A DNA stretch of 29,675 nt from Octopus sinensis (GCF_006345805.1 NW_021836492.1:1-29675), one strand, 5' to 3'; positions 5,918-27,947 are shown, counted from the first letter of the stretch. Program-made: numbers and translations. Notes: a model not told the origin generated them from the sequence alone.

Positions 5918-6110
5918 GCCATGATAGATCGGTATCCACTACACACATTTTTTCTCTCCTTGTTTCTTTCTGTGTCCCTTTCTGTAGAAGAGCGAAGGCT
6001 CGAAACGTAAAATAATTTTTCAATTCCTGAGCGTTATACCAATACATCTGTTTGTTTTCTACACCACCTGTCTTCGTCTTTTGTTGTTTTTTTTCGTGTA
6101 GTCTCTCTCT
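5918..6110 (+). mobile_element. Short repeat family C with variant HHR-like motif (copy 1)
   Basis: Shared with 22848-23018 and 26586-26785. Motif ttt CTGTAGA a GAGC gaag GCTC GAAA CG TA aaa at about 5979-6012. Flanked by (TATG)n and (TA)n. Confidence 0.7.
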
Positions 6111-6271
6111 ATGTGTATATACATATATATAAATAAATATAAATATCATATATATATATAATATATATTATATATATATAATATATATATATCTAATATA
6201 TATATATATATATTATATATTATATAATATATATATATATATATAATATATATATATAATATATATATATA

Positions 6272-6430
6272 TAATACAAAATGGGACAGAACGCAAAAGA
6301 TCGGACAGATATGTGATACAAAAAGGAACAACAAACATCCAGATAGACGATACAAAGAAAACAAATGCAGGTCATTCGAAGTTTTCTTTCTTCAGTCAAG
6401 CACCAGATTATCCTCGCAATTTCGGCTGGT
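6272..6430 (-). repeat. Unclassified element next to a (TA)n tract, possibly a PLE pseudo-LTR fragment
   Basis: Minus strand has ccGAAAttgcg and CTGAAGA-aag-aaaa-ctt-cGAA followed by a T-rich tail. Single copy here and no complete HHR fold. Confidence 0.3.
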
Positions 6431-6779
6431 AGGTACGTATGTATGTGGAATGAAATAAACGATAAGGGAACAGGAATTACGAAATAAAATCCATTAGCAT
6501 ACATCTTTTTCTGCTATAAGATGCCGTGCACGCATAGCTGAATGCCTGTGCATCACATCATAGCTTACGCAGAGCTTCTAAATCGAGCTCTGTGTGCACT
6601 GCATTTGATAGCAGAAACACTTGTAAGCCAAGGATGTTTGATCACGTGATTCCTGTTTCTTTTTTTTTTCTTTTTTTTTTTACGTTTTGGCATCCATTCA
6701 ATTTCTTAATTCGTTTGGTCCTCAATTAACGCTTTTTTTCTGTATAAGGAGTTGTAACACCAAGATATTAGTATTGCAA

Positions 6780-7009
6780 GGCGGCGAGCTGGCAGAAACG
6801 TTAGCACACCGGGCGAAATGCTTAGCGGTATTGCGTCTGTCGTTGCGTTCTGTGTTCAAATTCCGCCGAGGTCGACTTTGCCTTTCATCCTTTCAGGGTC
6901 GATAAATTAAGTACCAGTTACGCACTGGGGTCGATATAATCGACTTAATCCGTTGTCTGTCCTTGTTTGTCCCCTCTATGGTTTAGCCCCTTGTGGGCAA
7001 TAAAGAAAC
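6780..7009 (+). mobile_element. Family D SINE with central gcctttcatcctttc-gggtcgataaa-agtacc domain (Meta-domain-like) and 17-bp TSD
   Basis: TSD agatattagtattgcaa at 6763-6779 and 7010-7026. Box A-like agctggcagaaacg and box B-like gttcaaattcc. Confidence 0.88.
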
Positions 7010-7045
7010 AGATATTAGTATTGCAATGCCCAAGCGAAATCTCTC

Positions 7046-7081
<36 letters not shown>

Positions 7082-7122
7082 AATAAGAAGATGAAAACAC
7101 ATACGTATTTGCATACATCCAT

Positions 7123-7513
7123 AGGCGTAGGTGTGGCTCTATGGTAAATAGCTTGCTTACAAACTACATGGTTCTGGGTTCAGTCTCACTGCGTGGCACC
7201 TTGGGCAAGTGTCTTCTACTATAGCCTCGGGCCGACCAAAGCCTTGTGAGTGGATTTGGTAGACGGAAACGGAAAGAAATCCGTCGTATATATGTATGTA
7301 TACATATATATATGTGTGCGTGTATATGTGTTTGACAACCTATACTGGTGTGTTTACGTCCCCGTTACTTAGCGGTTCGGCAAAAGAGACCGATAGAATA
7401 AGTACAAGGTTTACAAAGAATAATTCCTGGGGGTCGATTTGCTCGACTAAAAAGGCGGCGCTCCAGCATGGCCACAGTCAAATGGCTGAAACAGGAGTAA
7501 AAGAGTAAAAGAG
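7123..7513 (+). mobile_element. Family B SINE, full length
   Basis: Head aggcgtaggtgtggct...ggttcagtctc; tail gtaaaagagtaaaagag. Confidence 0.88.
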
Positions 7514-8082
7514 TATATCTGTGCGTGTGCGCACATGTTTGTCAGCGCATATTTTGCAACTTTTACTTTCTGCTCCTCTTCCTCTCCTCTCTCTCTCTCT
7601 CCCCTCCTCCACTCTCTCCTCCTCCTCCTCCTCCTCTTTCTCTCCTCTACCATTCTCTCTTGATTCCATTTATTTCCAACTAAATTCCTCACAACCAATA
7701 TCACAATAAGAGTTTATATCTCGTCGCGGTGATCTCGGAAATGTAATCTCCAAAATGAAAGTATTTTTCACCTAACATTCAATTAATCCGGATTAAAGAA
7801 TTAATGGAAAATTCCTACGGCAACATTTAATAATCTGTACCGTTTCTTTTCACCACATCTGTCATAACAAACCTAAGCCGGGTGTTTTCATAAACGATTC
7901 TCTTCACTAAGAGTATTTCTTCCACTTCTTTTTTTTTTTTTCCCCCCGATCTTACTAAAATACCCGATATTAAGATTAGTTAGAAGCTCAGTTATAGAGT
8001 TCTGGGTTTCGAATCCTGTAAGATTACAAAATCACCATTCCTTCATGTTTTATTTTTACCGTTTGTTTCATTTTATTTTGTA

Positions 8083-8593
8083 CTAGCAGTATCGCCCGGC
8101 GTTGCTCGTTTTGTAAGGGAAATAACTATATAAGCATTTTTAGTGAGTTATAGCAAAAAAATAGCAAAAAAATGGAATAAAAAATTATGGTAATTTTGGT
8201 GTCTTCAAGCCATGAAGTCGTTGTTCTAAAAGAACGCTGGTCTCCTTGACAATGCTTTACGACGTTGATTTCCTTACACTCCCTTCCCCACAGCTTCACG
8301 AGGGAGGGAAGAAGGGAGAGAAGCAACACAGGTGCAGGTGTGACCATGGACGCCAACTCCGCCGCCATCGACACACGAAATAATATGCGTTAAAATGGAA
8401 AAAAATGATGTTAAATTATTTTTAAAATCGTAGACTCATCGTAGACGCGCGCTAATACCCAGACGGGCTCGATATAAATCCCGACTATAAGATACCTGAA
8501 TTTGGTTAAACTGCACCACAAAATGTGGGAGTAGTTAGGAATCTAAATCGTAGGAGACAGACACTCACACAACTACAGTTTTATATATATAGA
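8083..8593 (-). mobile_element. Non-autonomous Helitron
   Basis: Minus strand starts TCtatatatataaaa and ends cgagcaacgccgggcgatactgCTAG with a degenerate subterminal GC hairpin. Inserted between A and T with no TSD. Confidence 0.8.
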
Positions 8594-8594
8594 T

Positions 8595-8950
8595 GTTAAT
8601 ATATTTTCTGTTGTGTCTAGGAAGAGTCATTTTCTTTTTGTGCCTTACAATTTAACACACACACCGGTAAAATTTCCACTTATTTTCATTTTTATTTTTC
8701 TAAAATTTTCATGGCGTCTTGCAACCTTTAAAATTTTCGTTGCGTCTTGCAACCTTTTCAATAGTCAAGACTATTGAAAAGGTTGCAAGATGCAACGAAA
8801 ATTTTAGAAAAAAAGAAATAAAAAATAAGTGGAAATTTTACCGGTGAGTAAAAAGGCACGAAAAGAAAATTACTCTCCCCAGACACAGCAGAATATGTTT
8901 CAACAAAGAATCTTGCAAACCAAATCCAAAAATGAAATATATTTTCTATT
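8595..8950. repeat. Long inverted repeat centred at 8767-8768 with an internal 28-29 bp tandem duplication
   Basis: taaaattttcgttgcgtcttgcaaccttttcaatagtc-aa-gactattgaaaaggttgcaagatgcaacgaaaatttta. Arms continue imperfectly to about 8600 and 8900. Confidence 0.9.
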
Positions 8951-9106
8951 TTCTTTTTTTTTATTTTGTAGGTGTAAGTCATCTATCACTCTGTGTAACA
9001 TCCCGACCTAGTGCTTTGAGTGGTAGCAGTAAGACATCGCCCTGTTTGACACCAGTTCCCAGTGCTTTGACTGATAGTACTAACAAAAAAAAGTAATAAT
9101 AATAAA

Positions 9107-9415
9107 ACACTCCGTCGGTTACGAAGACGAGAGTTTCAGTTGATCCAATCAGCAGAACAACCAGCTCGTGAAATTTACGTACAAGTGGCTGAGTACTCCA
9201 GAGACACGCGTATCTTTAACGTAGTTTGCAGAGAGACTCGGTGTGACGTAGAATGTGGCTCTTTGAAATACAGGTACACTTCAATTTTGCCAGTTGAGTG
9301 AACTGGAGCAACGTGAAATAAAGTGTTTTGCTCAAGGATACTACGTACTGCTGGGAATCGAACTGACGACCTTGCGATCGTGAGCCAAATACCCTACCCA
9401 CTAAGACACGTGCCT
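9107..9415 (-). mobile_element. CORE-type tRNA SINE sharing the 3' tail of family A
   Basis: 9107-9277 aligns to the family A tail. The body has tccttgagcaaaacactttatttc (CORE-like) and the head has box B gttcgattccc. Confidence 0.75.
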
Positions 9416-9649
9416 ACACAAGTAGCAGTAACGAAATCGCTCTGTCGAGTATCACTGCCTTCTATTTCCAGTGGCAGCAATAAAACATCGCCCTGCTTCA
9501 CGCCTAGACTTGGACTTTTGTGTCGTAGCGGTAACAACTGCGTCCTTTTTAACCCATTGCCTGCCATGAGCCCCATTTGGGGATCTGCTAAAAACAGTCT
9601 CACATCCGTTCTATTTAAAATGAATTGCTTGTGGACATTGCATTTGTGC

Positions 9650-10052
9650 TTTCGGTTTAAATACCACCTAAGTCGACTTTGCCTTTTAACTTCTTGGGAT
9701 CGATAAAAATAAATACCAGTTGGGCACTGGGCTCGATGTAATTGACTGATCCCACCCCCAAAATTGCTGGCCTTGTACCAAGATTAGAAATAATTAATTA
9801 TACTCGCGTATATCAAAATTATGAAGAACAGTTTTCCATACCGGTTTCAAGTTTTGGCACAAATCCAACAACTTTAAAGGGAGTATGTCAATCATATAGA
9901 TCCCAGTGTTCAGTTGGCACTTATTTTATCGACCCCGAAAAAATGAAATCAAATTTGACTCTGACAGCATATGAACTCAGAATTAAAAGCTGGAAGAAAT
10001 GGCGTTATGCATATTTTCGGCGTGCTAACGATTTTGCCAGCGCGCTTCCTTA
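9650..10052. mobile_element. Two diverged family D-like SINE copies in opposite orientation (9650-9790 +, 9840-10052 -)
   Basis: gtcgactttgccttt...gatcgataaaaataaataccag on plus, then acttattttatcgaccccgaaa...ttttgccagcgcgc (reverse complement of family D). Confidence 0.65.
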
Positions 10053-10339
10053 AACAATGTTGTTCATAGTGTCGAAGCATTAATATGAATTTCCAAAAGT
10101 GTTAAATTTTATTGAAAAAAAAATTTTCTGGCGTACATGTAGCGCACAATAGAGAACCACGTGCTCAGTATTTTGTAAATTTCTTGACGATCCCTTCATC
10201 TCTTTACATGCCGACGTTTCTCGTGCAAACATTAACCTGCAAATGTTCAGATTGTCAACTAACCACATCAGCCTTACCAGTCGGGCAGTGTAGTCTGCGA
10301 TCGTCATTAGCACTGCCCTATCTCTTCTGAGAAGCACTA

Positions 10340-11190
10340 CCATTGCCCCCACCACCACCACCACCACCACTACCAACCCCTCTGCCGAAGCAACAAGCAA
10401 CATAACCGCCATCACCATCACTGCCATCAACACCACTGCTAACAACACACCACCACCACCACCACCATCACCACTACAACCACAGCCATCACCATCATGA
10501 CCACAATAAGCTAGATGACCATCGCTCCTATTAACACCATCACCACCGTTACGACCAAACCCCACAAACACCACCATCGGCGCCACCACATAGAGATTCC
10601 GTCTGCCCAATTTCATTCCAAAAATATGAGTCGAAAAGAAGCGATCGAAAAAAAGTCATATTTCCCTAAAATACCACGCAGTGAGATCGAAACCGAAACC
10701 TTGCAGTTACGAGGAGAAACTCTAAACCATTCCGCCACACTGTGCCTACCCTATACTCTTCAACACCCGCACCATCGTCACCGCCCTGCACCTATACCAC
10801 CCACGTCCTTGCTACAAAGACCCGGATATATGCTTACTTCCTCAACAGCACGAAATCTGCAATTATCGTTAAGGCATGTTTTGCAGAAATGTGTGCGTAT
10901 GTGTGTGTGCGCGATTGTATTCATATATACATTTATGTGTGTATGTATGTATGTTTATATATATGTATGCTTGTATGTATGTATGTAATATATATATATT
11001 TATGTATGTGCATGTATGTATGTATGCGTGTGTGTCGATGTATATATGTATGTATATGTGTATATACGTATGTATGCATGCTTATATGTACGCAATATGC
11101 ATATATCAATGTATATATGTATGTACGTATATATACACGTAATATGTACCTATGTGTGTGTATTTATATATATGTATTCATATATGCGTC

Positions 11191-11229
<39 letters not shown>

Positions 11230-11405
11230 TGTGTGTGTGTGTGTGTATGTATGTATGCATGCATGTATATACGCATGTAATATACTTACGAATGCAATAT
11301 TTATACATTAATGTATATATGTATGTAGGTATGTATGCATGTAACTTGTGTGTGTGTGTGTAGTAGTAGTAGTAGTAGTAGTTAGTAGTAGTAGTAGTAG
11401 TAGCA
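10340..11405. repeat. (CAC)-rich tract, decayed family B head (10595-10750, -), then a long TATG/TA/TG/(TAG)n microsatellite
   Basis: Directly visible low-complexity sequence. Confidence 0.85.
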
Positions 11406-11622
11406 GTATAACTAGAGTAAACGCATACTCCCACTTTTACTCTGACTCCTACCTCACAAAACACGGCTAAGTGCTCGTTGGATTCATTAAGGAAAAATTG
11501 TCTGTTTTTCTGTTGCTTCTTAAACAACTTCAAAGCGAAACGCAACCAAAATCATGGTCTAAAATTCGTATGGTGCTAAAAAAAAAAGAGGCTCATTTTG
11601 TATCTGTCTAACATGTGTGTGT

Positions 11623-12377
11623 AGGGTGCGGTGAATAAAATGTCATCGCAATTACACTAAATGAAAATAACACAGACATCTCATTTTAACCCTTTCGCTA
11701 CCGTATTTATTTTGAGATGCTCTGTGTTTTTTTCAATTACTTTAACTATAACAAAGAATTTAGTAAAATAACTTAGTAATCATTAAGCTAGTGTTAGGAA
11801 TGTAAATTGTGACTCAGGCTTGGTGGACGATTTTAATTCAAAACTTATGAAAACAAGACATTTTACCACATAACCAGAGCCGGTTTTGGCCGGGTTAGTA
11901 ACAAAATTGCATAAAAATATCTTGAAATTCTAAAGAGTAAAATCGCGACTGGCTTCAACCACGGCCTCCAGATGTCTTCGAAATCCGCTGCAACTCTTCT
12001 GGACGGTCTCCTTATTTAAGTTCGTGAATGCTGCCATACTCCTTGATTTCAGTTCAAAACAAGGAGTTTTGTTAGTCTCTCGTTCAACTGCGCCCCACAT
12101 ATAATCAAAGGAGTTGCACTCTGGGGAGTTAGGTGGCCAAATGTCCGGGGTGATATGGTCACAAAAATTGTCTGACAGCCATGACTAGGCTCTCCTGCTT
12201 GTGTGGCATGGTACAGAGTCCTGTTGCCAGTCATAGGGTCTTCCAGCAGCCACCCTCTTGACCCAGGGCAGTACTGCCTCCTCCAGGTACTTGATGTAGG
12301 CCTCTGTGTTAAGTCTGAGGCTATGTGGGAAGATCAGTGGAGGCATGACGTCGCCATCACTAGTGATCACTCCAAAC
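11623..12377 (-). mobile_element. Tc1/mariner superfamily DD37D (maT) transposon, 3' half with pseudogenised transposase
   Basis: FGVITSDGDVMPP...WQQDSVPCHTSRRA*SWLSDNFCDHITPDIWPPNSPECNSFDYMWGAVER...RRHLEAVVEA. There are 37 residues between the second and third catalytic D, one in-frame stop, and a TIR-like end agggtgcggtgaataaaatgtc at 11623. Confidence 0.9.
11686..11906. mobile_element. piggyBac-like MITE nested in the maT 3' end
   Basis: Begins TTAA-CCCTTTCGCTACC. The opposite end (agtaacaaaa) is a decayed inverted terminus. Confidence 0.5.
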
Positions 12378-12469
12378 GCCCTAACACACCCACACGCACA
12401 TACACAGACACACACGGACACACACACATATATTCTCTCTCTCTCTATGTGTGTGTGTGTGTGTTGTGT

Positions 12470-12675
12470 ACCAAAGTAAGCACATAAATGCGAAACAAGG
12501 TGGAAAAATAGTACTCGAATACCAGAGCTAGAGTAATATGCTTTATTCAAAAGCAGCAGAAATATCACAAAAGCTGTCACTCAGAGTTTCACGTTCTAAA
12601 CAAAACTGTCCGACGAACGGGAACGTGAAACTTTGAGCGACAGTTTCTGGGATTTGTTGCTGCACTTTTATAAAG

Positions 12676-12676
<1 letters not shown>
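12470..12676. mobile_element. Inverted-repeat element, family F2, carrying a CCGACGA-core HHR-like motif
   Basis: Arms 12540-12596 and 12621-12676. Plus strand aaaactgt CCGACGA acg ggaa cgt GAAA ctttgag cg acagttt (12602-12646). Homologous to 22533-22780. Confidence 0.75.
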
Positions 12677-12737
<61 letters not shown>

Positions 12738-13144
12738 CAAAAAACACCCCATTTTCCTATGTTACTTCATAACTTTTAAGAAAAAAACCAACGTTCGTCA
12801 AATATACAAATTTCACATGGATATTATTGAAGAGCAGAAGAGTTATCTATAAATGCTTAACAATATAGAATTCCATTATTCTATATTAGCTAAGGCTATG
12901 AACTATATTTGGAATACAGGACAATATAATGGATTTTACACATAACTATTATGGATTATTACAGAAAACTAACCAAGGAAGTATATATGGATTAAAAGAC
13001 TCTCATACTAAAATGTACTTACCAACATCAAAAGCAGTAATTTTAAATTTATATTTGAAACAAACGCCATTTTACAGTATTTCTTCATATAAAAAAAAAA
13101 CAAAAAAACTACCATTTGATATATTATACAAAATTCAAATTTTA

Positions 13145-13236
13145 TATCTCTGAAGAGCAGAAGAGTTGTGTATAAATGCTTATCAACATAGGATTTCATT
13201 ATAGGGACAGCACTTCTGTGAAACGATCGTAAGATG
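13145..13236 (+). ncRNA. Type I hammerhead ribozyme, canonical core, long stem II (family F4)
   Basis: Stem I tatct/agatg; CTGAAGA 13150-13156; stem II GCAGAAG/CTTCTGT plus gttgt/acagc; GAAA 13220-13223; palindromic stem III CGATCG; GUA cleavage triplet ending at 13231. Confidence 0.8.
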
Positions 13237-13414
13237 CTCTAAAGATTTAATTCGAAACTTTTAAACTGTCATATGCATTATATATTTATACTTATACATT
13301 TTTACATATATTTATATATATTTATATTTTTAATACAACAATTATTTTACATACGTTTATATCTTTCTGAAGAATTTTCTAATATTGATTTCCTGATATT
13401 AATAATAATAAATT

Positions 13415-13444
13415 ATAATATATATATATATATATGTGTATGTG

Positions 13445-13484
<40 letters not shown>

Positions 13485-13525
13485 ATATGTGTGTGTGTGT
13501 GTGTATAATAGCACTATGACCCGGC

Positions 13526-13568
<43 letters not shown>

Positions 13569-13600
13569 TAATAATATAATAAAATAATGATAATAATAAA
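13415..13600. repeat. (TA)n/(TG)n and (TAA)n microsatellites
   Basis: Directly visible. Confidence 0.95.
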
Positions 13601-13873
13601 AGGGTAAAATTAATTAATTAATCAATCAATTAATTAATAATTTTACCAAGTAGATCTGTACGTTATAATAAACTTTATAGGTAAAATTATACAAATATTC
13701 TATAATTATAAACATAATTATAATTAGGGGTCAAGTAATTGCTTCACCACATACCGAATTTAGAAATAGGAGTTAAAAATTCCTTTTCTACTACCGTAAG
13801 AATCTCCCAGACAGTATCACACTTTTTTACGTAGGCAAAGAGAAAAATAATGAATCCACACGACTCCGATTAC

Positions 13874-13933
13874 CTACAGACGCGTTCCGAGATTAAAGTA
13901 TTTAATTTACTTACTTTCCCGTCATCAGTGTAG
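13874..13933 (-). ncRNA. Type I hammerhead motif (F1) with one core substitution (GAAA to GGAA)
   Basis: ctaca CTGATGA c GGGA aagta..tactt taa TCTC GGAA CGCG TC tgtag. Stem I is perfect. Confidence 0.7.
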
Positions 13934-14161
13934 CATTTCCATTATAAAATTTGAAAGTGCTAGAGTTAAATACGTACAGGATCGATGACGGGAAGTAAGT
14001 AAATAAAATACTTTAATCTCGAAACGCGTCTGTAGGTAATCGGAGTCGTGTTGATTCGGTATTTTTCTCTTTTTGCCTACGTAAAAAACTGTGATACTGT
14101 CTGGGAGGTTTTTACGGTAGTAGAAAAGGAATTTTTAAACTCCTATTTCTAAATTCGGTAT

Positions 14162-14380
14162 TACTCTTTACTCTCTTTTACTTGTTCCAATCATTTACTG
14201 CGGCCATGCTGGAGCACCGCCTTTAATCGAGCAACTGGACCCCGGGAATTATTCTTTTGTAAGCCCAGTACTTATTCTATTGGTCTCTTTTGCCGAACCG
14301 CTAAGTGATGGGGACGTAAACACACCAGCATCGGTTGTCAAGCAATGCTAGGGGGACAAACACAGACACACAAACACACA

Positions 14381-14427
<47 letters not shown>

Positions 14428-14608
14428 TATATACACATATTATACGACGGGCGTCTTTCAGTTTCCGTCTACCAAATCCACTCACAAGGCTTTGGTCGGC
14501 CCGAGGCTATTGTAGAGAAGACACTTGCCCAAGGTGCCACGCAGTGGGATGAACCCCGGAACCATGTGGTTGGAACAACCTACTTACCACACAGCCACTC
14601 CTGCGCCT
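14162..14608 (-). mobile_element. Family B SINE, full length, inserted into the F1 right arm
   Basis: F1 sequence resumes at 14609 (gtgaagcaattagctgacccctaattataat). Confidence 0.9.
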
Positions 14609-14704
14609 ATGTGAAGCAATTAGCTGACCCCTAATTATAATTATCACACATTCCTTCCAAGCACTGCTGTAAATAGCGAATGTGAACTAAAACGTTAAAA
14701 CTTA

Positions 14705-14786
14705 GTGCGCATGCACAACAGAGTTCGAAATCAATCTGCGCCAAGCGGTTTTACTCTGAGTACTTTAGCTTCGTTACCATAGCAAC
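14705..14786. promoter_or_regulatory. Candidate RFX X-box plus NRF1-like palindrome
   Basis: GTTACCATAGCAAC at 14773-14786 matches the X-box consensus. GTGCGCATGCAC at 14705-14716. Motif match only. Confidence 0.3.
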
Positions 14787-14864
14787 AGTCCGGATACTTA
14801 TTGATCAGACCACATATATTCCTCCTTCGACAGGACTTAGGTCCGTTGCAGGATTATTTATATA

Positions 14865-14993
14865 GAGTTGAGTGGAATTGAGCAATGAAGTGAAATGAAG
14901 TGCCTTGCTCGAGAACACAACACCCGACCCAGGAATCGAAACCACAATCTTAAGATCATGAGTCCAGCACCCTAACTACTGAGCCATATACCC
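14865..14993 (-). mobile_element. Head and CORE fragment of the SINE type seen at 9107-9415
   Basis: gtgaaatgaagtgccttgctc...aggaatcgaaacc...ccctaactactgagcca. Confidence 0.65.
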
Positions 14994-15400
14994 TACTTCT
15001 ACAATATACCCGGCTGAAATTGGAGTGCGTCTAATATACAAGCGCGTCTTTTACGCCATCAATTACGGCAAATAAAGAAGCAGCATAAACGTGGAATTGG
15101 TAAATTAGAGAGAAAACCAAAAATGGTGCTAAAAGAACGAAGCATAATTCGTGAGTAAACCTTTTACACTGAACAGTCTAGCAGAGAATAATGAAGAATG
15201 GTTTCCTTGTGACACTTCGAAGACGAATAATGAAAAAAAGCCCTCTTGTTTCGAATTGTTTCCAACTTTCTCCACAGTTCTGCCAATAATGTCAGAGGGT
15301 AAATATCGATTAGTCGTCAATATCGGTTATCGTATTATATGATAAATGGTTGGAACTGTTCGCTGTTCGTTGCAGGAATCATCGCAGCAATGATTGAATA

Positions 15401-15402
<2 letters not shown>

Positions 15403-15436
<34 letters not shown>

Positions 15437-15847: not shown

Positions 15848-15916
<69 letters not shown>

Positions 15917-15930
15917 ATTAGTGCGTGTGT
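15403..15930. repeat. Long degenerate (TG)n tract with an internal duplicated unit
   Basis: gagtgtgtgagctagtgaga occurs at about 15547 and 15692. Confidence 0.9.
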
Positions 15931-15945
15931 GTATTTTCCGTTCAG

Positions 15946-16149: not shown

Positions 16150-16180
<31 letters not shown>

Positions 16181-16204
16181 ACACACAACACACACAGATA
16201 TATA

Positions 16205-18064: not shown

Positions 18065-18790
18065 ATAGAGCCGGTTATACAGTTTCCATTGCGTATGATT
18101 GACATTGCAACATTTCCCCTGGACGGGACGCATGACCTTGCAGGTGGGGCCCAGCTAGAGTTTTCTTCTGGTCGAGTAGCCCATCCCGCCCGAAAGGTCC
18201 CTGAATAAGGATTGTTTAAGGATGTTGAACGAACCACCCATGTTTCCAAAGGTGAATTATCCAAACCCCAAAGAATTCCTCTCAACACGTGGCTATTGAT
18301 GCTCCCCCACTACTTCTGCTCATGATCAGAGATGCACATATTGTTAACCACTAAGAGACATGGTCAACTGGTTAAGGTCAAGCAACTGACAAGCAAATCT
18401 GTGGTATTGAGCAGAATATTTGCTGTCGCCCATCTTTTATACCAAAACAAAACAATGTACATGATAACACTTCCAATCAGTTAAGATCAGAAGCCACGAG
18501 AGCCACTGTCTGGTACTGCATCAGGGCATTTATTATTATTATTATTGTTATTATTATCATCATCATAATCATCATCATCATTATCATCATTATCATCATC
18601 ATCATCTCATTCATTATTATTATTATTATTATTTATTATATTATTGAGTGAGAGCAGTTCATGCCATCAAAATGACACTGGGGTAAAATATACGAAGCCC
18701 AATATACCCATCATGACTACCCGTCTGATAAGGTACACCAGGCACATGCATCACAACCATATGTGCGCGACATGGTGATCTCATATCAAG
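18065..18790. repeat. SINE tail fragment (18065-18131, -) plus unclassified interspersed sequences embedded in (ATT)n/(ATC)n tracts
   Basis: The reverse complement gcgtcccgtccagggg...ggaaact...aaccggc matches the tail at 25755-25810. Segments 18132-18530 and 18645-18790 border directly on (TAA)n runs. Confidence 0.5.
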
Positions 18791-18793
18791 ATA

Positions 18794-18839
<46 letters not shown>

Positions 18840-19029
18840 GCAGCGAGCTGGCAGAATTGTTTAATTAACAAATATTTTTTTTACTTTTGGTAAATTTCCA
18901 AAACGAATGGAGATCGAGCAGAATGTGTGAACCAACCGGAAATTTCTCTGTTGGCCATTGCTGACCCGGTGCTAGCAAAAAAAAACCCATTCTCAATGGC
19001 TGAAAAACATCTCAAAGCAGATCTGACCA

Positions 19030-19410
19030 GGAAGTTAATATAGCTTCAGGCCATGGAGATCAACCACTGTGACAGCTACAGTAGAAAGCAGTGGAGCAAC
19101 ACCTTCCCCTCTTCGTGATGTTTGTGGACTTTTCTAAGGTATCTGACGCGATGGACCGAGAAACATTATGGGAAATCCTGGAAACTTATAGATGCCTTGA
19201 GAAACTTGCTAACATCATCAAGCAATTCCACTCAGGAATGAGAGGGATGGTCTCAGTTGGCGGAGTATTTTTGGTGAAGTGTTTGGAGTAAATCATAGTG
19301 TGAAGCAGGGGTCTGTGTTTGCCCCTACCTCCACTCTTCTCTCTTTACCTCACAGCTGTGCTTGGCACCATGAGGGTTAATCTGCACAAAAAGGATTTCA
19401 TCCGCAGCAA
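19030..19410 (+). mobile_element. Decayed RTE-clade LINE reverse transcriptase fragment
   Basis: SFRPWRST...EKAVEQHLPLFVMFVDFSKVSDAMDRETLWEIL...IIKQFHSGM...GVNHSVKQGSVFAPT..LFSLYL, corresponding to the RT motifs FVDF.KAFD and GV.QG...P.LF. Confidence 0.85.
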
Positions 19411-19531
19411 AACTAAAAGCGTTTGCGCTTCGAATTTTCGTTAATCACTGCTTTTTCGAGCTATATGGGGTATTAGAAATAGCAAATAAATAACTGTTTT
19501 GCTTGAATGTTAAATTATACTGCAGAATACG

Positions 19532-19946
19532 TTACTCTTTTACTATTTTACTTGTTTAAGGCATTTGACTGTGGCCATGCTGGAGCACCACCTTTAGTCG
19601 ATTGAGCAAATCGACCCCAGGACTTATTCTTTGTAAGCCTAGTACTTATTCTATCGCTCTCTTTTGCCGAACCGCTAAGTTACGGGGACGTAAACACACC
19701 GGCATCGGTTGTCAAGCGATGTTGGGGGGACAAGCACAGACACACAAACATATACACACACACTTACATATATACATATATACGACGGGCTTCTTTCATT
19801 TTACGTCTACCAAATCCACTCACAAGGCTTTGGTCGACCCGAGGCTATAATAGAAGACACTCGCCCAAGGTGCCATGCAGTGGGACTGAACCCGGAACCA
19901 TATGGTTCGTAAGCAAGCTACTTACCACACAGCCACTCCTACGCCT
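19532..19946 (-). mobile_element. Family B SINE, full length
   Basis: Consensus match. Confidence 0.88.
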
Positions 19947-20163
19947 ATGATATTTTCAATGGACATTGTATGAAAATTCCATAACATTTTATATATTTTC
20001 GCAATGCCAGTTTCAGTCCCGTCTTGGGATTTCATCAACGAGTGTAGATCTGCTTTCAATGTGAATGAATAAATGAATAGTCTACTTATACATCCACAAT
20101 TACAAACGGTTAAAGAAACGGATAGACCAACTTGCATATATAACGTGGATGAAAGGTAGAGAA

Positions 20164-20397
20164 GCAGGAGTGGTTGTGTGGTAAGTAGCTTGCTAACCAA
20201 CCACATGGTTCCGGGTTCAGTCCCACTGCGTGGCATCTTGGGCAAGTTGTCTGCTATAGTCCGGGCCGACCAATGCCTTGTGAGTGGATTTGGTAGACGG
20301 AAACTGAAAGAAGCCTGTCGTATATATGTTATATATATATATATATAGTATATAATATATATATATATATATATAATATATATATATATTATATATA

Positions 20398-20431
<34 letters not shown>

Positions 20432-20630
20432 TTGTCCCCCTAGCATTGCTTGACAACCGATGCTGGTGGTTTACGTCCCCGTCACTTAGCGGTTCGGCAA
20501 AAAGAGACCGATAGAATAAGTACTGGGCTTACAGAAAGAATAAGTCCCGGGGTCGAGTTGCTCGACTAAAGGCGGTGCTCCAGCATGGCCGCAGTCAAAT
20601 GACTGAAACAAGTATAAAGAGTAAAAGAGA
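20164..20630 (+). mobile_element. Family B SINE, head-to-head with 19532-19946
   Basis: Consensus match with internal (TA)n. Confidence 0.88.
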
Positions 20631-21159
20631 GAGAGTAAGCTGAATAATAATAAACAGAAAGTGGCCGAAATTTATTGGTATTAAGAAGTGGTGGTTAGAG
20701 ACTGGGGAGGAAAAGGAGGAGAGAGAAAAAATATAAGAAGGGGAGAGACAAAATATAAAACCACGGTGTGTGTTTTTGAAAGTGTGGTGAAGCGATAGAG
20801 TATGAAAGGCGAGGTGCATAAGGCTCGGTCTTTTTTTTTTATGAAACAATTAACCGGTTATAGCCGTGGTCGTGGGGGAATTAAAAGGAGTTGAGAAAAG
20901 AGGTAATTAAGAACTATTTTAATTAAAGGATCATAGAATATTATTTTAAGATTAAAAATACGGGGTTTAGTTGTATTAGGGATAAATGACTCATTAGGAG
21001 TGTTTCAAAATGCCTGAAGTGGTAATAAAAGTAGAAAAGCTGCCTCATTTTATTGAGAAATTTGTTATTTGTATTGTAAAACGGTTTGGTTTAAATTAGA
21101 ATAAGGTGAAAGTGACACAGCAGTGGTTAAGGTGAGCTAAGGAAGTTTCTATTATTATT

Positions 21160-22090
21160 GGTTTCAAAGTTTGGCACAAGGCCAGCAAGTTCTGGGGAAT
21201 GAGTAATCGATTACATCAACGGCAATGCTTGACTGGTTCTTATTTTATCGACCCCAAAAAAGAACGAAATGCAAAAACGACCTCGACGGAATTTGAACTC
21301 AGAACTCAGAAGACGGACGAAATGCCGCTGAGTATTTTGTCCGGCGTGCCACCGTTTCTGCCAGCTCGCAGCCTCAAAGTTTGTATTTACATCAGTTTCG
21401 AATTTTAGCACGAGTCTAGCAATTTCAGGGAAGGGAATAAGTCGATGGCATCACCCCCATTGACCAACTAGTATTTATTTTATCGACCCCGAGAGAACGA
21501 AAGGTAAAGTCGACCTCGGCGGAATTTGAACTCAGAACATAAAGGCAGAAAAAATGCCACTGAGCATCTTGGTCGGCGTGCTAACGTCTCTACAGCTCGC
21601 CGTCTTACAAATATTCAAATATTAATAAAAACGTTAAGGCGGCGAGCTGGCAGAAACGTTAGCACGCCGGGCGAAATGCGTAGTCGTATTCCGTCTGCCG
21701 TCACGTTCAAATTCAGCGGGGAACCTTGGGCAAGTGTCTTCTACTACAGCCTCGGACTGACCAAAGCCTTGTGAGTGGATTTGCTAAACGGAAACTGAAA
21801 GAATCCTGTCATGGATATATATATATATATATATATATACGTATGTGCGTGTGTGTGCGTGTGTGCGTGTGTGTGTGCGTGTGTGTGTATGTGTGAAAAT
21901 GTGTGCGTTTGTCCCCCACTACTGCTTGACAACCGGTGTTGTGTTTATGCCCTGTGACTTAGCGGTTCGGCAAAGGAGACCGACAGAATAGATATCAGGC
22001 TTAAGACAAAATAAGCACTGGAGTCGATACGTTCGACTAAAATTCTTCTTGGGGGTGCTCCAGCAGGGCCGCAGTCAAATAACTGAAATT
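21160..22090. mobile_element. SINE cluster: two family D copies (21160-21372 and 21395-21606, -), a D head (21637-21713, +) joined to a family B body (21723-22090, +)
   Basis: Segments align to the family D and B copies elsewhere in the window. Confidence 0.75.
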
Positions 22091-22134
22091 AAAAAAAAAT
22101 AGAATACCAGTAATTACATCTTTTGTAAGAAATA

Positions 22135-22495
22135 TTGTCACAGAATTGGCTGGGAAATGAGAGAATAAGATGAAGAAAAAAAGCATGGAATAAACTGCAT
22201 AGAAATAGAGAAGTTTATATATCGTTAAGTAGAGAGAAAAAGCATGAGAAAAATGGTGAAGAATTGTAAATTTAAGATCAATAGTTATATGGAAAAGTAG
22301 GATTGAGTGGGAGACCCCGAGGAAAAGAAAGTGTAGAAGTATTCTTGAAATAATGTAAAGAATATTTAACTGCAGAACGTGAATATGGATGAGTGCAGCC
22401 TTTGTAGAGGTTTACAGAGAAATTGTAAAGCAGTGCTAAGCGGCATAACCCAAGAGAAGGAACCGAGATTCTAAGTGGAATAGAGACGAAAAAAC
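22135..22495 (+). mobile_element. Possible highly decayed LINE 3' end
   Basis: Purine-rich. Residual WLG and GRPRGK words resemble the RTE C-terminus. Confidence 0.3.
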
Positions 22496-22532
22496 AGGTC
22501 ATATAATATCATATCATATCATATATATGTAT

Positions 22533-22780
22533 GCTTTATTAATAAAACTATAAAGACATTACAAAAACTGTTACTCAGAGTTTCACGTTACCGTTTGTCG
22601 GACAGTTTTGGTTGAAAATAGAACAAAATATGAACCATATTTTGTTCCATTCTCAACCAAAACTGTCCGACAAAAGGGAACGTGAAACTCTGAGTAAGAG
22701 TTTTTGTGATATCTTTGCAGCTTTATAAATAAAGCCTCTAGTATTCGAGTACTATTTTCTTCCACTTTGTTTCGCATTTA
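22533..22780. mobile_element. About 200-bp hairpin of family F2 with an HHR-like motif in each arm
   Basis: Arms 22533-22632 and 22636-22735 with a 3-nt loop. Minus: aaaactgt CCGACAA acg gtaa cgt GAAA ctctgag TA acagtttt. Plus: aaaactgt CCGACAA aag ggaa cgt GAAA ctctgag TA agagtttt. Confidence 0.85.
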
Positions 22781-22847
22781 TATGCTTATTCTGGAATATA
22801 TTTTTTCTTTCTTCTCCTTTTCCATATATATATATTTTTTTTTTTTC

Positions 22848-23017
22848 ACATTTTTTCTCTCCTTGTTTCTCTCATTGTTTTTTGTGAGTCCTTTTCTGTA
22901 GAAGGGCGTAGGCTCGAAACATAAAAGACTTTTTCTATTCCTGAGCGTTATACTAATACATCTGTTTGTTTTGTACACCACCTATCTTCGTCTTTTGTCT
23001 TTTTCGTAAACTCCCCC

Positions 23018-23018
<1 letters not shown>
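22848..23018 (+). mobile_element. Family C repeat (copy 2)
   Basis: tttt CTGTAGA a GGGC gtag GCTC GAAA CA TA aaag. Confidence 0.7.
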
Positions 23019-23056
<38 letters not shown>

Positions 23057-23174
23057 GATCTCATTCGTCTGTTTGAATTCGGAAGTACTGGTCGTTGGAT
23101 ATACGTTGTCTGATGTCGCCTGGTCAGATAAGTATGTTAATTTTTCAGTGCTCTCAAATTTAATATTTTCAATT

Positions 23175-23257
23175 ACTGTACTGAAGACGAGAATGAGAGA
23201 GTAGAAATAGGATTTTACATTTTTCACATCTCTCTAACTCCGAAACGCGTATATAGT
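23175..23257 (+). ncRNA. Type I hammerhead ribozyme, canonical core (F1 family, diverged copy within 23125-23430)
   Basis: Stem I actgta/tatagt; CTGAAGA 23181-23187; stem II GAG..GAGAGA/TCTCTC..CTC with a C.C mismatch at its base; GAAA 23242-23245; CGCG; GUA site ending at 23251. Confidence 0.75.
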
Positions 23258-23480
23258 TAATCAAAGCCGGGTGGATTCGTTATTTTTTCTCTCTTCTTTA
23301 TCTGCGTGAGTTGTTGAGTATTGCTGTTTGGGAGATTTTTTTATGGTAGTGAAATTGTAGTTGTTAACTGGTATATCTAAATTTCGGTATGTGGTGATGC
23401 AATTTTTGCTGAACCCTAATTATAATTATACTCATAATTATAGAAGTAATATATATATATATATATATTATAGATATATA

Positions 23481-23520
<40 letters not shown>

Positions 23521-23521
<1 letters not shown>

Positions 23522-23871
23522 GACTGCGGCTTATGCTGAGCACCGCCTTTAGTCGAGAGAATAGACAACAAGACTTATACTTGTAAGCCTAGTACTTATT
23601 CTTATTTTGCCGAGCCCTAAGTTACGGGGACGTAAACACACCAGCATCGGTTGTCAAGCGGTGGTGGAAGGACAAACACAGACACAAGCATACATATATA
23701 TATTTATACGACGGGTCTCTTTAGTTTCCGCCTACCGAATCCACTCACAAGGCTTTGGTCGGCCGAAGCTATAGTAGAAGACACTTGCCCAAGGTGCCAC
23801 GCAGTGGGACTGAACACGGAACCATGTGGTTCGTAAGTAAGCTACTTACCACACAACCATCAGCTACGCCT
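23521..23871 (-). mobile_element. Family B SINE, diverged
   Basis: Consensus match; the tail is lost in (TA)n. Confidence 0.8.
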
Positions 23872-24174
23872 ATATAAGTAAGTAAACTATGAAATATATA
23901 TAAAAAAAGTGGTGGGTCGCTGAGGGTAATATGTGGCCATGAGAGGGGCGGTGGCCCAAAATGTTTGAGAAACTCTGGTCTAAAGTAAATGGTGATTGGC
24001 TTGGCTGGCTTGTCAGAATTTGAACATACATGATAGTGAAACAAAACAGAATAGACCAGAGCCTTTTAGTCCGGCGCTCCATCAGGTTTGCCTCTTTTCA
24101 TCTCTTTCTATTCACCCACCTCAGCTTATTATTAAAATTTTTATTTACATTCGCAAAAGGGCACAGATTTATAG

Positions 24175-24910
24175 AGGTGGTGGCGGTGGTGGTGCGGGTG
24201 AGGATGATGAATGTGGCAGCTGTGGCGATGGCGATGGTGGTAGTGATAATACGTGTAGTGTTGTTGTGTTGTTGTTGCTGTTGTTGTTGGTGGTGGTGGT
24301 GGTTGTGTGGTGGTGGTGGTTGTGGTGGTGGTGTTGTGTGGTGGTTGTGGTGGTGGTGTGGTGGTGGTGTTTTGGTTGTGGTGGTGTTGGTTGGTGGTGT
24401 TGGTCATGGTGGTGGTGGTGTTGGTGGTTGTAGTGGTGGTGGTGGTGGTGGTGGTGGTGGTGGTTGTGGTGGTAGTGGTTTTGTAAACGATGTCGATGGT
24501 TATGATGACGGTGACGGTGACAGTGGTGATAGTAGTGGTTGTGGTGGGGTGTGGTCACATGGTGGTGGTGTGGTGGTGGTTGTAGGGGTGGTGGTGGTTG
24601 TGGTGGTGGTGGTGGTGGTGGTGGTGGTGGTTGTGGTCATGGTGGGGTGGTGGTGGTGGTTGTAGTGGTGTTGTGGTGGTGGTGGTGGTGTGGGGGTGGT
24701 AGTGGTGGTGGTGTTTGTGGTGGTGTGGTTTGTAGTGGTGGTGGTGGTTGTGGTGGTGGTGGTTGAGTGGTGGTAGTGGTTGTGGTGGTGGTGGTTGTGG
24801 TGGTGGTGTGGTTGTAGTGGTGGTGGTGGTGGTGGTGGTTGTAATGATGTCGATGGTTATGATGACGGTGACAGTGGCAGTGGTGATAGTAGTGGTTGTG
24901 GTGGAGGTGG
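24175..24910. repeat. (GGT/GTT)n low-complexity array with internal duplication
   Basis: The cassette gatgtcgatggttatgatgacggtgac...agtggtgatagtagtggttgtgg occurs at about 24489 and 24846. Confidence 0.9.
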
Positions 24911-25554
24911 TATGTTGATGAGCTCTCGGCTGTCTAAAGTGCAGACTATGAAATATAAATGAATGAACGGGTGCAATGAAGAACAATGCGTTTCTTCGCG
25001 TTACAGCTTATTAAAATAACGATTTCTTGAGATTAGGCACGTAGCCATATTTCTTTTTAATGGAGTGACAAATTGCAAATCGTGACATTCCTGTTTTTTA
25101 AGCACATTCCCCAACCTTCCCTAACCCAAAATGATACAAAAATTAAAAAAAAACAAAACATTTCAACGTAATTGAAGTGAACAGACTTGAACCGGGAATC
25201 GAAACCGCTTCTTAGATTTGACATCATTCGCCTCCTCAAATGTTAGCGCTTGCTCTCATGATTTCATTTACGCAAATTTAGAGAGAGGGCGAGGAAGAAG
25301 TTAGCGGATGTAGACGACACTTAGTTGGTTCCTGTTATATTGGGTAGAAATAAATAATGAATTAATGAAATTTAAACTATGATGTTGTGAGGTTCATGCC
25401 TTCCTCCCAATAGTGTTTTTTTTGCCATTCTGTGATGTTAGAGAACGGATGAAAGTGTCAGTAAACGGAATGTTCTGTAAGTTTGTGAAGGTCAATCGAA
25501 GAACCGCACACTACCCAGTGCGCCCTCTTGTGGTGAATTTGCAGAAAGTGTAAA

Positions 25555-25853
25555 GTGGAGGCACATGGCCAAGTGGGTAGAGCAGCGGACTCGCGGTCGA
25601 GAGATCGCGGGTTCGAATCTCAGACCGGGTTATTTGTGTGTTTATGAGCGAAACACCTAAGCTCCAGGCGGCTCCGGCAGAAGGCAATGGCGAACTTCTG
25701 CTGACTCTTTCACCACAACTTTCTCTCACTCTTACAGCTCGCCTGCGACGGACCGGCGTCCCGTCCAGGTGGGGAACCTATACGCCAAGGAAACCGGGAA
25801 ACCGGCCCTTATGAGCCAGGCGTCGCTCGAGAAGGAACAACCAACAAACAACA
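25555..25853 (+). mobile_element. tRNA(Arg)-like SINE with family A head and body but a different 3' tail ending in (CAA)n
   Basis: gtggaggcacatggccaagtgggtagagcagcggacTCGcggtc...ggttcgaatctc; body ctctttcaccacaactttctctcac as in family A; tail cctgcgacggaccggcgtcccgtccagg. Confidence 0.85.
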
Positions 25854-25892
25854 ATAAAGCATCCAGCAATATCTTAGAATTTATACAGATAT

Positions 25893-26303
25893 AGGCGCAG
25901 GAGTGGCTGTGTGGTAAGTAGCTTGTCTACCAACCACATGGTTCCGGGTTCAGTCCCACTGCGTGGCACCTTGGGCGAGTGTCTCCTACTATAGCCTCGG
26001 GCCGACCAAAGCCTTGTGAGTGGATTTGGTAGACGGAAACTGAAAGAATCCCGTCGTATATATGTATATATATATATGCGTGTGTGTGTGTTTGTTTGTA
26101 TGTATTTGTCCCCCTAGCATTGCTTGACAACCGATGCTGGTGTGTTTATGTCCCCGTTACTTAGCGGTTCGGTAAAAGAGACCGATAAAATAAGTACTGG
26201 GCTTACAAAAGAATAAGTCCCGGGGTCGATTTGCTCGATTAAAGGCGGTGCTCCAGCACGGCCGCAGTCAAATGACTGAAACAAGTAAAAGAGTAAAAGA
26301 GTA
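25893..26303 (+). mobile_element. Family B SINE, full length
   Basis: Consensus match. Confidence 0.9.
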
Positions 26304-26423
26304 TACAATATCGATTCTCCAGAACATCTGGTTCCAGATCCTTTCCTGATTAGTGATGTTTCCGAATCAAAAATAGTCACCTAAGTCAACACACACGAAA
26401 TTAAACAAATATTAAATTTATTT

Positions 26424-27062
26424 AGGAGTGGCTGTGTGGTAAGTAGCTTACTTGCCAACCACATGGTTCCGGGTTCAGTCCCACTGCTTGGCACGTTGGG
26501 CAAGTGTCTTCTACTATAGCCTCGGGCTGACCAAAGACGGAAACTGAAAGAAACCCGTCGTATAAATATGTATATCTATATGTATGCCATGATAGATCGT
26601 TAGCCACTACGCACATTTCTTTTCTCCCCTTGTTTCTCTTCTTGTTTTCTGTGTCCCTTTCTGTAGAAGAGCGTAGGCTCGAAACGTAAAAGACTTTTTC
26701 TATTCCTGAGCGTTATACCATACAGCTGTTTGTTTTGTACACCACCTGTCTTCCGTCTTTTGTTTTTTTCCATAAACTCTCCCTAATGTATGTATGTATG
26801 TATGTATGTATGTATGTATGTATGTATGTATGTATGTATGTATGCGTGTGTTTTTGTGTCTGTGTTTGTCCTTCCACCATCGCTTGACAACCGATGCTGG
26901 TGTGTTTACGCCCCCGTAACTTAGCGGTTCAGCAAAAGAACCCGATAGAAATAAGTACTAGGTTTACAAAGAATAAGTTCTGTTGTCGATATGATCCACT
27001 AAAGGCGGTACACCAGCATGGCCGCAGTCAAATGACTGAAACAAGTAAAAGAGCAAAAGAGT
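26424..27062 (+). mobile_element. Family B SINE with a family C element (26586-26785) nested in its internal microsatellite
   Basis: B 5' half 26424-26562; C insert containing cttt CTGTAGA a GAGC gtag GCTC GAAA CG TA aaag (26657-26692); (TATG)n; B 3' half 26845-27062. Confidence 0.85.
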
Positions 27063-27357
27063 GTAAATAAATGAAATACAGGTACCGTTTTAATTGGTGT
27101 TAATTAGTGCGGATTATAAACGGTTCAGGACAATCAGTGTCCGGAAAGTCCGTGCTGTACTTGTTTTCTCTCATAATTTCATGGTAGTGCTCCAGCTCGG
27201 CAAAGCTCAATAGTAATTACGAAAACAGTAAGTACGAAAATGAGTTCAATTTCAATAATTGTCGAGTTTGTTTCTTATCCATCAATTCAGTATTTATAAA
27301 TTAGATTTAAACAGCATCGGTGTGTATAATATTCACAATGTATATATAAACATATAT

Positions 27358-27766
27358 AGGCGCTGGAGTGGCTGTGTGGTAAGTAGCTTGCTTATCAACC
27401 ACATGGTTCCGGGTTCAGTCCCACTGCGTGGCATCTTGGGCAAGTGTCTTCTGCTATAGCCTCGGGCCGACCAAAGCCTTGTGAGTGGATTTGGTATATG
27501 GAAACTGAAAGAAGCCCATCGTATATATGTATGTATATATATATATATGCGGTTGTGTGTTTGTGTGTCTGTGTTTGTCCCCCTAGCATTGCTTGACAAC
27601 GATGCTGGTTGTTTAATGTCCCCGTTACTTAGCGGTTCGGCAAAAGAGACCGATAAAGTAAGTACTGGGCTTACAAAAGAATAAGTCCCGGGGTCGAGTT
27701 GCCGACTAAAGGCGGTGCTCCAGCATGGCCGCAGTCAAATGACTGAAACGAGTAAAAGAGTAAAAG
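27358..27766 (+). mobile_element. Family B SINE, full length
   Basis: Consensus match. Confidence 0.9.
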
Positions 27767-27897
27767 GTTAAAACATGGCACGGTACTGGCTGTCATTTTT
27801 CTTTTCTTCTTTCTTTCTTTCTTTTTTTTCCGTCTCAGGCAAAATTCTCTAAAAGACTTTAATGTTATAACAAGTGGTTTATCTCACAACGACGGTG

Positions 27898-27947
27898 ATT
27901 CATCAGACAAGCTGTTTCGACCTGATGTGCTCTCTTCAGAAGTGAAT
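27898..27947 (-). ncRNA. Type I hammerhead motif, canonical core with imperfect stems (family F5)
   Basis: attcactt CTGAAGA gagc acatca ggtc GAAA cagcttg TC tgatgaat. GUC site; stem I pairs only distally (attca/tgaat); one G.G mismatch in stem II. Confidence 0.6.

Follow-up and report, generated by a model that had tools for sequence, protein, structure and literature searches.

A hammerhead motif with U at core position 6 in a young Penelope-like element, among decayed hammerhead families in a contig of Octopus sinensis

Why does one short contig carry about eleven motifs with the fold of the hammerhead ribozyme, and what kind of element left them there? The window considered here is the whole of contig NW_021836492.1 of Octopus sinensis (GCF_006345805.1; 29,675 nucleotides, nt), a repeat-dense 29.7-kb piece of a 2.72-Gb animal genome. 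It holds many microsatellites and short interspersed nuclear elements (SINEs), the latter presumably octopus tRNA-derived SINEs, which they resemble. The motifs belong to five families, named C, F1 (with subfamilies F1a and F1b), F2, F4 and F5, and are largely decayed minimal type I hammerheads from the pseudo-long terminal repeats (pLTRs) in Penelope-like elements (PLEs), an arrangement already known. The window has accumulated decayed copies of five genome-wide families inserted at (TA)n. The observation is real and largely of a known kind, and four of the families are ordinary additions to the known catalogue. Family C, the most abundant, has U in place of A at core position 6 (A6U), a fixed state that the preliminary description of the window missed.

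That description took the families for short non-coding retroelements and asked for a link to PLE open reading frames (ORFs) with reverse transcriptase (RT) and a GIY-YIG endonuclease. The non-coding claim fails for family C, and the link is present: the C element terminates copies coding for RT and a GIY-YIG-like domain in 5/5 coding copies fetched. One locus (L015) has an RT fragment that runs into a C element; it has an internal deletion and joins the A7 subfamily of the window to the same RT. A search with this RT gives 12,111 first-look candidates, of which 150 were scored, at 85-100% identity. Five RT copies were fetched, four of them chosen blind for long open frames and one (L283) chosen knowing that the motif lay downstream. 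All five show the same order of RT, CX4CxxC linker, GIY-YIG-like domain, pyrimidine-rich 3' untranslated region (UTR), C element and TA run. Their endonuclease regions are 94-99% identical, their hammerhead core is CUGUUGA in every case, and the linker satisfies the CX2-5CxxC definition given for the stretch between RT and endonuclease in the sections of PMC8557442 drawn on.

The complete locus (L287 and L282) has the textbook pLTR-ORF-pLTR layout. A 96%-identical direct repeat of about 780 nt flanks a 1009-codon open frame on both sides, and the hammerhead stands in both pLTRs, 4,508 nt apart, in the one locus that was extended upstream. The RT matches the Pfam model RVT_1 at 32.0 bits (cut-off 29.6), and is 27% identical over 723 amino acids to another PLE protein of the genome. 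The GIY-YIG motif residues are visible in the protein of the family C coding element and align to a GIY-YIG domain that passes its own cut-off. The named protein relatives are from corals and snails, at 47-52% identity. Family C does not have the lack of coding capacity that defines a non-LTR retrozyme. A genome-wide Pfam search for GIY-YIG (150 of 5,030 candidates scored) returned mostly a different PLE family, one with a 3' end that belongs to none of the window families.

The solo copies of family C are about 200 nt long. In 60 of them the part that matches the 3' UTR of the coding element extends 6-407 nt upstream of the core, with a median of about 81, and this variable reach identifies them as 5' truncations. 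A SINE-like unit of about 205 nt with a fixed 5' end was considered and rejected, since its ends are truncation points; the apparent fixed end arose from selecting the top 30 copies for covering the window copy. Three such copies lie in the window, all on the plus strand. The first, at 5917..6110 (end coordinate approximate), is a 5'-truncated PLE 3' end, or pLTR, followed by (TA)n; its hammerhead at 5979-6012 has the core CUGUAGA, loop 2 GAAG and a stem I of only 3 base pairs (bp). The second, at 22847..23020, has its hammerhead at 22892-22927, and its stem III palindrome is broken by a change of G16.2 to A, a CpG decay. The third, at 26585..26785, fits its subfamily consensus. Its hammerhead at 26657-26692 comprises stem I CUUU/AAAG, the core CUGUAGA with an extra A, stem II GAGC/GCUC, GAAA and the palindrome ACGU, with U6 at 26664 and H17 = A at 26688.

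The core of family C departs from the canonical one throughout the genome: position 6 is U in 13,318 of 13,792 exact matches. With the rest of the 27-nt pattern fixed, the counts at this position are U 13,318, C 297, A 140 and G 37, and the greater rarity of A than of C points to neutral decay from a U6 source. Twenty A6 copies that were fetched are spread across the U6 subfamilies. Under a looser pattern the counts are U 21,309 and A 381, and an older sister family is included among the A matches. This sister has A6, stem II GGAC/GUCC and often C at H17, and is a candidate for the ancestral state.

Other ways of finding copies agree on U6. With the 5' half of the motif left free, U6 is present in 97 of the 98 untruncated matches listed and A in none (read by eye; two truncated matches dropped). 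A search with the tail only gave 20 hits, in which all 11 non-window copies with a readable core carry U6, the remainder being window copies, duplicates, truncations or spurious. The four blind RT copies likewise carry U6. A register that would restore A6, with the core two bases later, was rejected, as stems I and II then fail. Within the first 100 matches listed (by eye), N7 is U in 51, A in 20, C in 17 and G in 12, and H17 is A in 66, U in 33, C in 1 and G in none.

Constraint is also seen at the level of the family. Five subfamilies defined on flanking sequence take in 82 of 100 C copies, and among their consensuses 0/33 constrained columns, 4/9 free columns and 44/141 flank columns vary (Fisher p = 3e-5, five clusters). 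The four free columns that vary are two in the stem I bulge, N7 and H17. Contigs from four sequencing runs (four organisms) show depth peaks over the C motif, and their variants at 3% or more fall at the bulge, N7, H17 and CpG sites and not at position 6, a weak indication in that the variant table omits the common N7 A>T. Changes within families are uncompensated decay, mostly at CpG, as is expected after insertion.

Related elements in metagenomes show the other state. At 80 such loci there are 14 motif-like matches, of which 13 have A6, one, a weak match, has G6 and none has U6, and all six motifs located just downstream of an ORF on the same strand have A6. U6 is thus apparently derived in the family C lineage, and it appears to have been retained there while the two spare positions changed. 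Between family C and these relatives there are two double changes in the three pairs of stem I, all 49 cells pair, and the covariation score is attained by 3/500 shuffles. Within family C itself, to judge from the sequences, A6U is the ancestral state, with more than 13,000 exact genomic matches and near-intact coding copies. Its non-A6 status lowers the label of canonical hammerhead, and not the statement that the motif derives from a hammerhead and folds like one. No report of an A6U hammerhead or of a CUGUNGA core was found in the literature searched, to which the catalogue of Lünse, Weinberg & Breaker 2017 may be an exception; that catalogue reportedly lists very many PLE hammerhead variants, and A6U may be among them. 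A fixed A6U in a young and very abundant PLE is probably a new variant.

The architecture, the (TA)n targeting and the family-level constraint of family C are observed, and the steps between them can be proposed as follows. In family C the source elements would have preserved the hammerhead in full through purifying selection, except that U has taken the place of A6. In read-through transcripts of a tandem copy, two motifs would pair through their palindromic stem III, and the paired motifs would cut after H17 and free a unit-length RNA, both steps being taken from published PLE work (dimer formation through the palindrome and the processing of tandem transcripts are described in the sections drawn on of PMC4209133 and PMC6765202). 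Also following published PLE work, the PLE protein would then copy the RNA into nicked (TA)n by target-primed reverse transcription, usually stopping early or inverting, and F1 and F5 would use a PLE protein in trans.

Published changes of A6 cut activity sharply, so that the family C motif is either a slow ribozyme that is tolerated or a fold that has persisted without cutting. Slow, dimer-dependent cleavage, possibly with the help of a protein or a metal, is its most likely behaviour. We put the probability that family C is the 3' end (pLTR) of a young, abundant, autonomous PLE with RT and GIY-YIG, of which the window copies are 5'-truncated remains, at about 0.88 for identity and architecture, and the probability that the A6U motif still cleaves in vivo at about 0.55. 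There is an even chance that a successful and probably active PLE ran through at least five subfamily generations on an A6U hammerhead outside the standard consensus, by a cleaving route that tolerates U6 (protein-, dimer- or Mn2+-assisted) or with a non-cutting signal, and that this variant is unreported.

Several points weigh against this reading. In the parts of the assay papers cited, a natural A6C variant cleaves at less than 0.1 per min (PMC3088659), A6C works poorly in Mg2+ and prefers Mn2+ (PMC7151607), and single mutants of the CUGA turn are low in a deep mutational scan (PMC9901934). Minimum free energy cofolding of two C motifs does not yield the hammerhead dimer. The absence of variation in 33 constrained columns is partly built in, as many copies were chosen by motif patterns, and with eight clusters one of the 33 varies (p = 6e-4). 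The covariation of C with its relatives amounts to one comparison of two groups. On the coding side, the GIY-YIG domain of L282 scores below the Pfam cut-off (E 0.0078; 16.9 bits against 22.6), and a frameshift may affect this copy at its N-terminus. For F1, F2, F4 and F5 no autonomous partner came to light.

A possible but doubtful alternative is that the A6U motif no longer cleaves and that its three-way junction is retained as a structural signal, either for RNA dimerisation or for recognition by the RT-endonuclease. The strong reduction of activity by A6 changes in the three assay papers just cited agrees with this, as does the spread of Naiad PLEs without canonical hammerheads, described in the sections consulted of PMC8557442. 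Loop 2 and the extra A, which should be dispensable for catalysis, are moreover invariant across the C subfamilies (5/9 free columns constant), a pattern that also fits a non-catalytic role. Against it, C3, G8, G12, A13, A14 and the A15.1-U16.1 pair are all kept in family C, N7 accepts any letter and H17 avoids G, which is the tolerance pattern of a cleaving ribozyme.

That A6U is merely a relic without function, which chance fixed in a single successful source element, with the apparent constraint arising from short divergence and sampling, is quite unlikely. Pattern-based sampling does fix part of the C motif, changes within subfamilies are scattered CpG decay with no compensation, and the same genome holds the older A6 sister family with its different stem II. 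But 31% of the flank columns vary among the subfamily consensuses while none of the 33 constrained ones does, reciprocal patterns that free either half of the motif give the same picture, and the motif, with its U6, is present too in copies located by the RT or the tail alone.

Family C is a natural experiment, in which a young PLE with near-intact coding copies combines an A6U core with conserved catalytic guanosines and has A6 relatives. Here A6U is fixed, in the most abundant family, where changes normally cripple cutting. Cleavage by the A6U motif would mean that descriptors assume too tight a hammerhead consensus and that whole families escape them; absence of cleavage would mean that selection keeps the fold for something besides cutting. 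Either outcome would bear on the purpose of PLE hammerheads, which is an open question: what they do in endonuclease-bearing PLEs is described as unclear (PMC8557442), and in vitro they show low activity (PMC4209133), in the sections of these papers drawn on.

The other families share the fold and the target of family C at various levels of decay. In each family consensus, stems I and II pair around the core and stem I is open-ended, as in type I hammerheads; G12, A13 and A14, the A15.1-U16.1 pair and an H17 other than G are present at family level, and several window copies lack one or another. The stem III palindrome is 4 nt long in C, 6 in F1, 8 in F4, and 9 with a central mismatch in F2 and F5. 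The core is canonical in F1a (A6 in 27/28, U4 in 27/28), in F4 (both in 29/29) and in F1b (both in 21/21). It is not in F2, which has C4 in 27/30 copies and in 85/100 of the first matches listed (by eye). U4C is also found in the metagenome relatives, and is a known natural hammerhead variant (PMC3088659, sections cited). Of the copies fetched, 20/28 of F1a, 11/30 of F2 and 22/29 of F4 retain both the family core and the palindrome. In the tail, F1a and F1b agree at 72.5% over 200 nt. Of the six pairs of stem I (GCUACA/UGUGGC in F1a, ACUGUA/UACAGU in F1b), three are changed on both sides and one by a compatible change on one side; N7 and H17 likewise differ between them. The compensatory changes proposed as a check on the stems are seen both between F1a and F1b and between C and its relatives. 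Cofolding of two F4 motifs gives the dimeric stem III.

DNA searches gave first-look candidates numbering 2,279 for C, 229 for F1a, 629 for F1b, 858 for F2, 662 for F4 and 11 for F5, of which 40 were scored for each of C, F1a, F1b, F2 and F4, and all 11 for F5. Exact patterns, whose counts are lower bounds, match 13,318 to 21,309 times for C, depending on the pattern, 405 times for F2, 99 for F4 and 72 for F1a, with 0-1 matches for reversed-pattern controls. The exact pattern of F5 matches once in the genome, at the window itself, even with two mismatches, and F5 aligns to an old degenerate family. A run of (TA)5 or longer lies within 40 nt of the 3' end in 23/30 copies of C, 16/30 of F2, 9/21 of F4 and 14/25 of F1, counting copies with a locatable end (two F4 and three F1 copies excluded), as against 5.2% of random windows. 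This bears out the preference for microsatellites ascribed earlier to these families. Inverted and partial-tandem layouts are common among the copies, as is typical of PLEs.

F1 is an ORF-less unit of about 540 nt with a tandem period of 519-558 nt in 5/28 distinct loci. As to the criterion of two consecutive complete hammerheads for an active retrozyme (Li et al. 2026), its upstream units that were examined are mostly truncated. F5 is an old, degenerate tandem repeat family with units of about 300-370 nt at L122 and L128, in which the homologous motifs are degenerate. No contiguous coding region was found within 1.5 kb of F1, F2, F4 or F5; for F2 and F4 this is 0/30 loci each, a count that does not exclude coding partners, since only 1/30 C loci showed the RT. 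By their organisation F1 and F5 look retrozyme-like; the non-coding reading fits tandem, ORF-less F1 and tandem F5, fails for C, and may apply to F2 and F4, with 0/30 loci showing a contiguous coding region. The view of all five families as separate, short retroelements that carry a ribozyme and code for nothing (retrozymes) is very improbable: the tandem units of F1 and F5 and the absence of a contiguous coding region beside F2 or F4 agree with it, but it is refuted for C, which ends a coding element, and the 0/30 for F2 and F4 carries no weight when RT accompanies C itself so rarely.

Three apparent links of these families to coding elements were rejected. F2 and the F1 tail occur beside another PLE family (L136, L161, L154) as separate insertions, 3' of its (TA)n end. 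In L076 a transposase-like stretch and a TA run lie between F2 and the endonuclease fragment upstream of it, and matches to 'EN140' and ORF1 pieces are artefacts of repeats within the queries. At L177, 2110-3524 and 5461-6845 form a 1.4-kb inverted duplication that takes in the 3' end of a PLE, an inverted pair of F2 and a hammerhead of a third family, an arrangement that suggests co-mobilisation by read-through. A second young PLE family (L164 1374-5074 and L168 1363-5063; copies about 99% identical) has a 781-codon RT and GIY-YIG frame, which in two copies is overlapped by an upstream 479-codon frame. The core of its 3' motif is of the U3-A8 type; the two-ORF layout may be unusual for an endonuclease-bearing PLE. 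At least eight further hammerhead-like motifs are unlike the window families (L140, L163, L166, L167, L170, L177, L178 and L219, that of L177 including one U4C), and the genome contains many more hammerhead families than the five of the window.

In the window, F2, with the family core CCGACGA (U4C), is represented at 12601..12648 (+) by a copy in which U16.1 and H17 are lost; an inverted, truncated F2 copy with an extension of about 75 nt lies 5' of it, at about 12468-12596. An inverted F2 pair comprises one arm at 22563..22610 (-) with G8A and a second at 22658..22705 (+) with G8A and mismatches in stems I and II. F4 has a canonical, intact hammerhead at 13145..13236 (+), with a 5-bp stem I, the core CUGAAGA, a 7-bp stem II, a long loop, GAAA, the 8-nt palindrome ACGAUCGU and H17 = A. 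Upstream of it, at 12803..12879 (+), an internal repeat of about 320 nt that was absent from the first list carries the 5' half of the hammerhead only. F4 elements in general have one or two such upstream repeats of about 320 nt with the 5' half only, and these halves could pair with the downstream 3' half as alternative partners.

The F1a hammerhead at 13873..13934 (-) has the core CUGAUGA with an extra base and the palindrome ACGCGU, and carries A13G. The F1a copy at 13984..14036 (+) is inverted and 5'-truncated, with its break at an inversion junction; C3, U4 and the 5' strand of stem I are missing from it, and a SINE at about 14161-14590 interrupts its tail. The diverged F1b hammerhead at 23175..23257 (+) has stem I ACUGUA/UACAGU, CUGAAGA, stem II GGAG/CUCC and the change G10.1C. 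The F5 hammerhead at 27898..27947 (-) has a 4-bp stem II, a 6-nt loop and mismatches in stems I and II, and is flanked by an inverted tail piece at about 27955-28020.

All eleven motifs of the preliminary description are present where it placed them, and the five families show no BLAST similarity to each other, in agreement with their being unrelated. The shared fold stands for the families, which are type I hammerheads of the Penelope-like kind; it is damaged in the majority of window copies. F4 alone is canonical and intact, two copies fit the family C core, and eight have core or stem lesions or are truncated. With the Rfam model Hammerhead_1 only F5 matches, at 21.5 bits, below the gathering score of 34, so that this check gives no gathering-level hit. 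The motif rate, which had been set as a test against shuffled sequence, is above the shuffles under each descriptor. A strict descriptor finds one motif (F4) against a mean of 0.03, and four against 0.23 when one core mismatch is permitted (30 block-dinucleotide shuffles each). A relaxed scan finds five against a mean of 0.05 and a maximum of 1 (40 shuffles); three of the five were on the first list, and two, at 822 and 8774, were not. In 200 kb of genome sampled at fixed positions the same scan gives six motifs, where five shuffles gave 0-2. Motif density in the window is thus about five times that of the genome samples, with no difference in kind.

The remaining features are of other types. 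An unlisted motif at 787-826 (-) with the core CUGUUGA passes the relaxed scans; it does not resemble family C and could have arisen by chance. A GIY-YIG endonuclease C-terminal fragment of another PLE type lies at 1089-1148 and 1537-1684 (+), split by a SINE; it is 70-82% identical to relatives at L134 and L149, which have no CxxC linker. Long perfect or near-perfect inverted repeats at 8730-8805 and 21565-21678 score as microRNA-like hairpins below the Rfam thresholds, and are probably inverted repeat insertions. Decayed RT fragments, judged from their translations to resemble long interspersed nuclear elements, occur at about 130-660 (+) and 19080-19400 (+). A transposase-like fragment at about 11930-12380 (-) resembles Tc1/mariner.

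The closest known system is the minimal hammerhead of PLEs (Cervera & de la Peña 2014, PMC4209133). It shares with the window families the type I form, the short stem I and the palindromic stem III, and with C and F1a the extra base between A9 and G10.1. It is likewise described as occurring in several families per genome, mostly as solo truncated copies, with the motif in both pLTRs and in inverted pairs; the diversity of ribozyme families first noted is real and was overstated in this respect. The consensus given there is CUGANGA, which A6U would not fit, and a motif outside the standard consensus would be missed by the usual descriptors. In the supplementary alignment, all 44 of the 44 rows compared have A6, with no cephalopod among them, whereas C fixes U6 and F2 has C4. 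No description of the window families was found in the octopus and cephalopod hammerhead and repeat-library literature, a search that stood apart from Dfam and Repbase; for the giant squid, 235 Rfam hammerhead loci are given in the part of PMC6962438 drawn on.

By domains and layout, rather than by RT phylogeny, family C resembles the Neptune and Nematis PLEs (Craig et al. 2021, PMC8557442, in the sections used). They share the RT, the CX2-5CxxC linker and, at the C-terminus, a domain that in family C is GIY-YIG-like, with CCHH-type residues, as well as partial tandem pLTRs, inverted 5'-truncated copies extended at the tail, and (TA)n targets. Among the supplement rows listed (2/4 places), the octopus PLEs are Naiads. 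F1 and F5 are similar to animal non-LTR retrozymes (Cervera & de la Peña 2020, PMC7229834; Li, Clavereau & Pollet 2026, bioRxiv 10.64898/2026.07.22.740005), as far as the parts cited describe them: they are tandem units without an ORF, about 300-560 nt long, that carry a type I hammerhead and probably descend from PLEs. In this genome F1 and F5 were seen only as partial tandems or decayed units, and family C is not a retrozyme. Natural core variants at the same two positions, A6C in phage Bcep176 and U4C in a viroid, retain the fold in the accounts cited from PMC3088659 and PMC7151607. These are isolated examples, whereas the A6U of family C is family-wide, with more than 13,000 exact matches.

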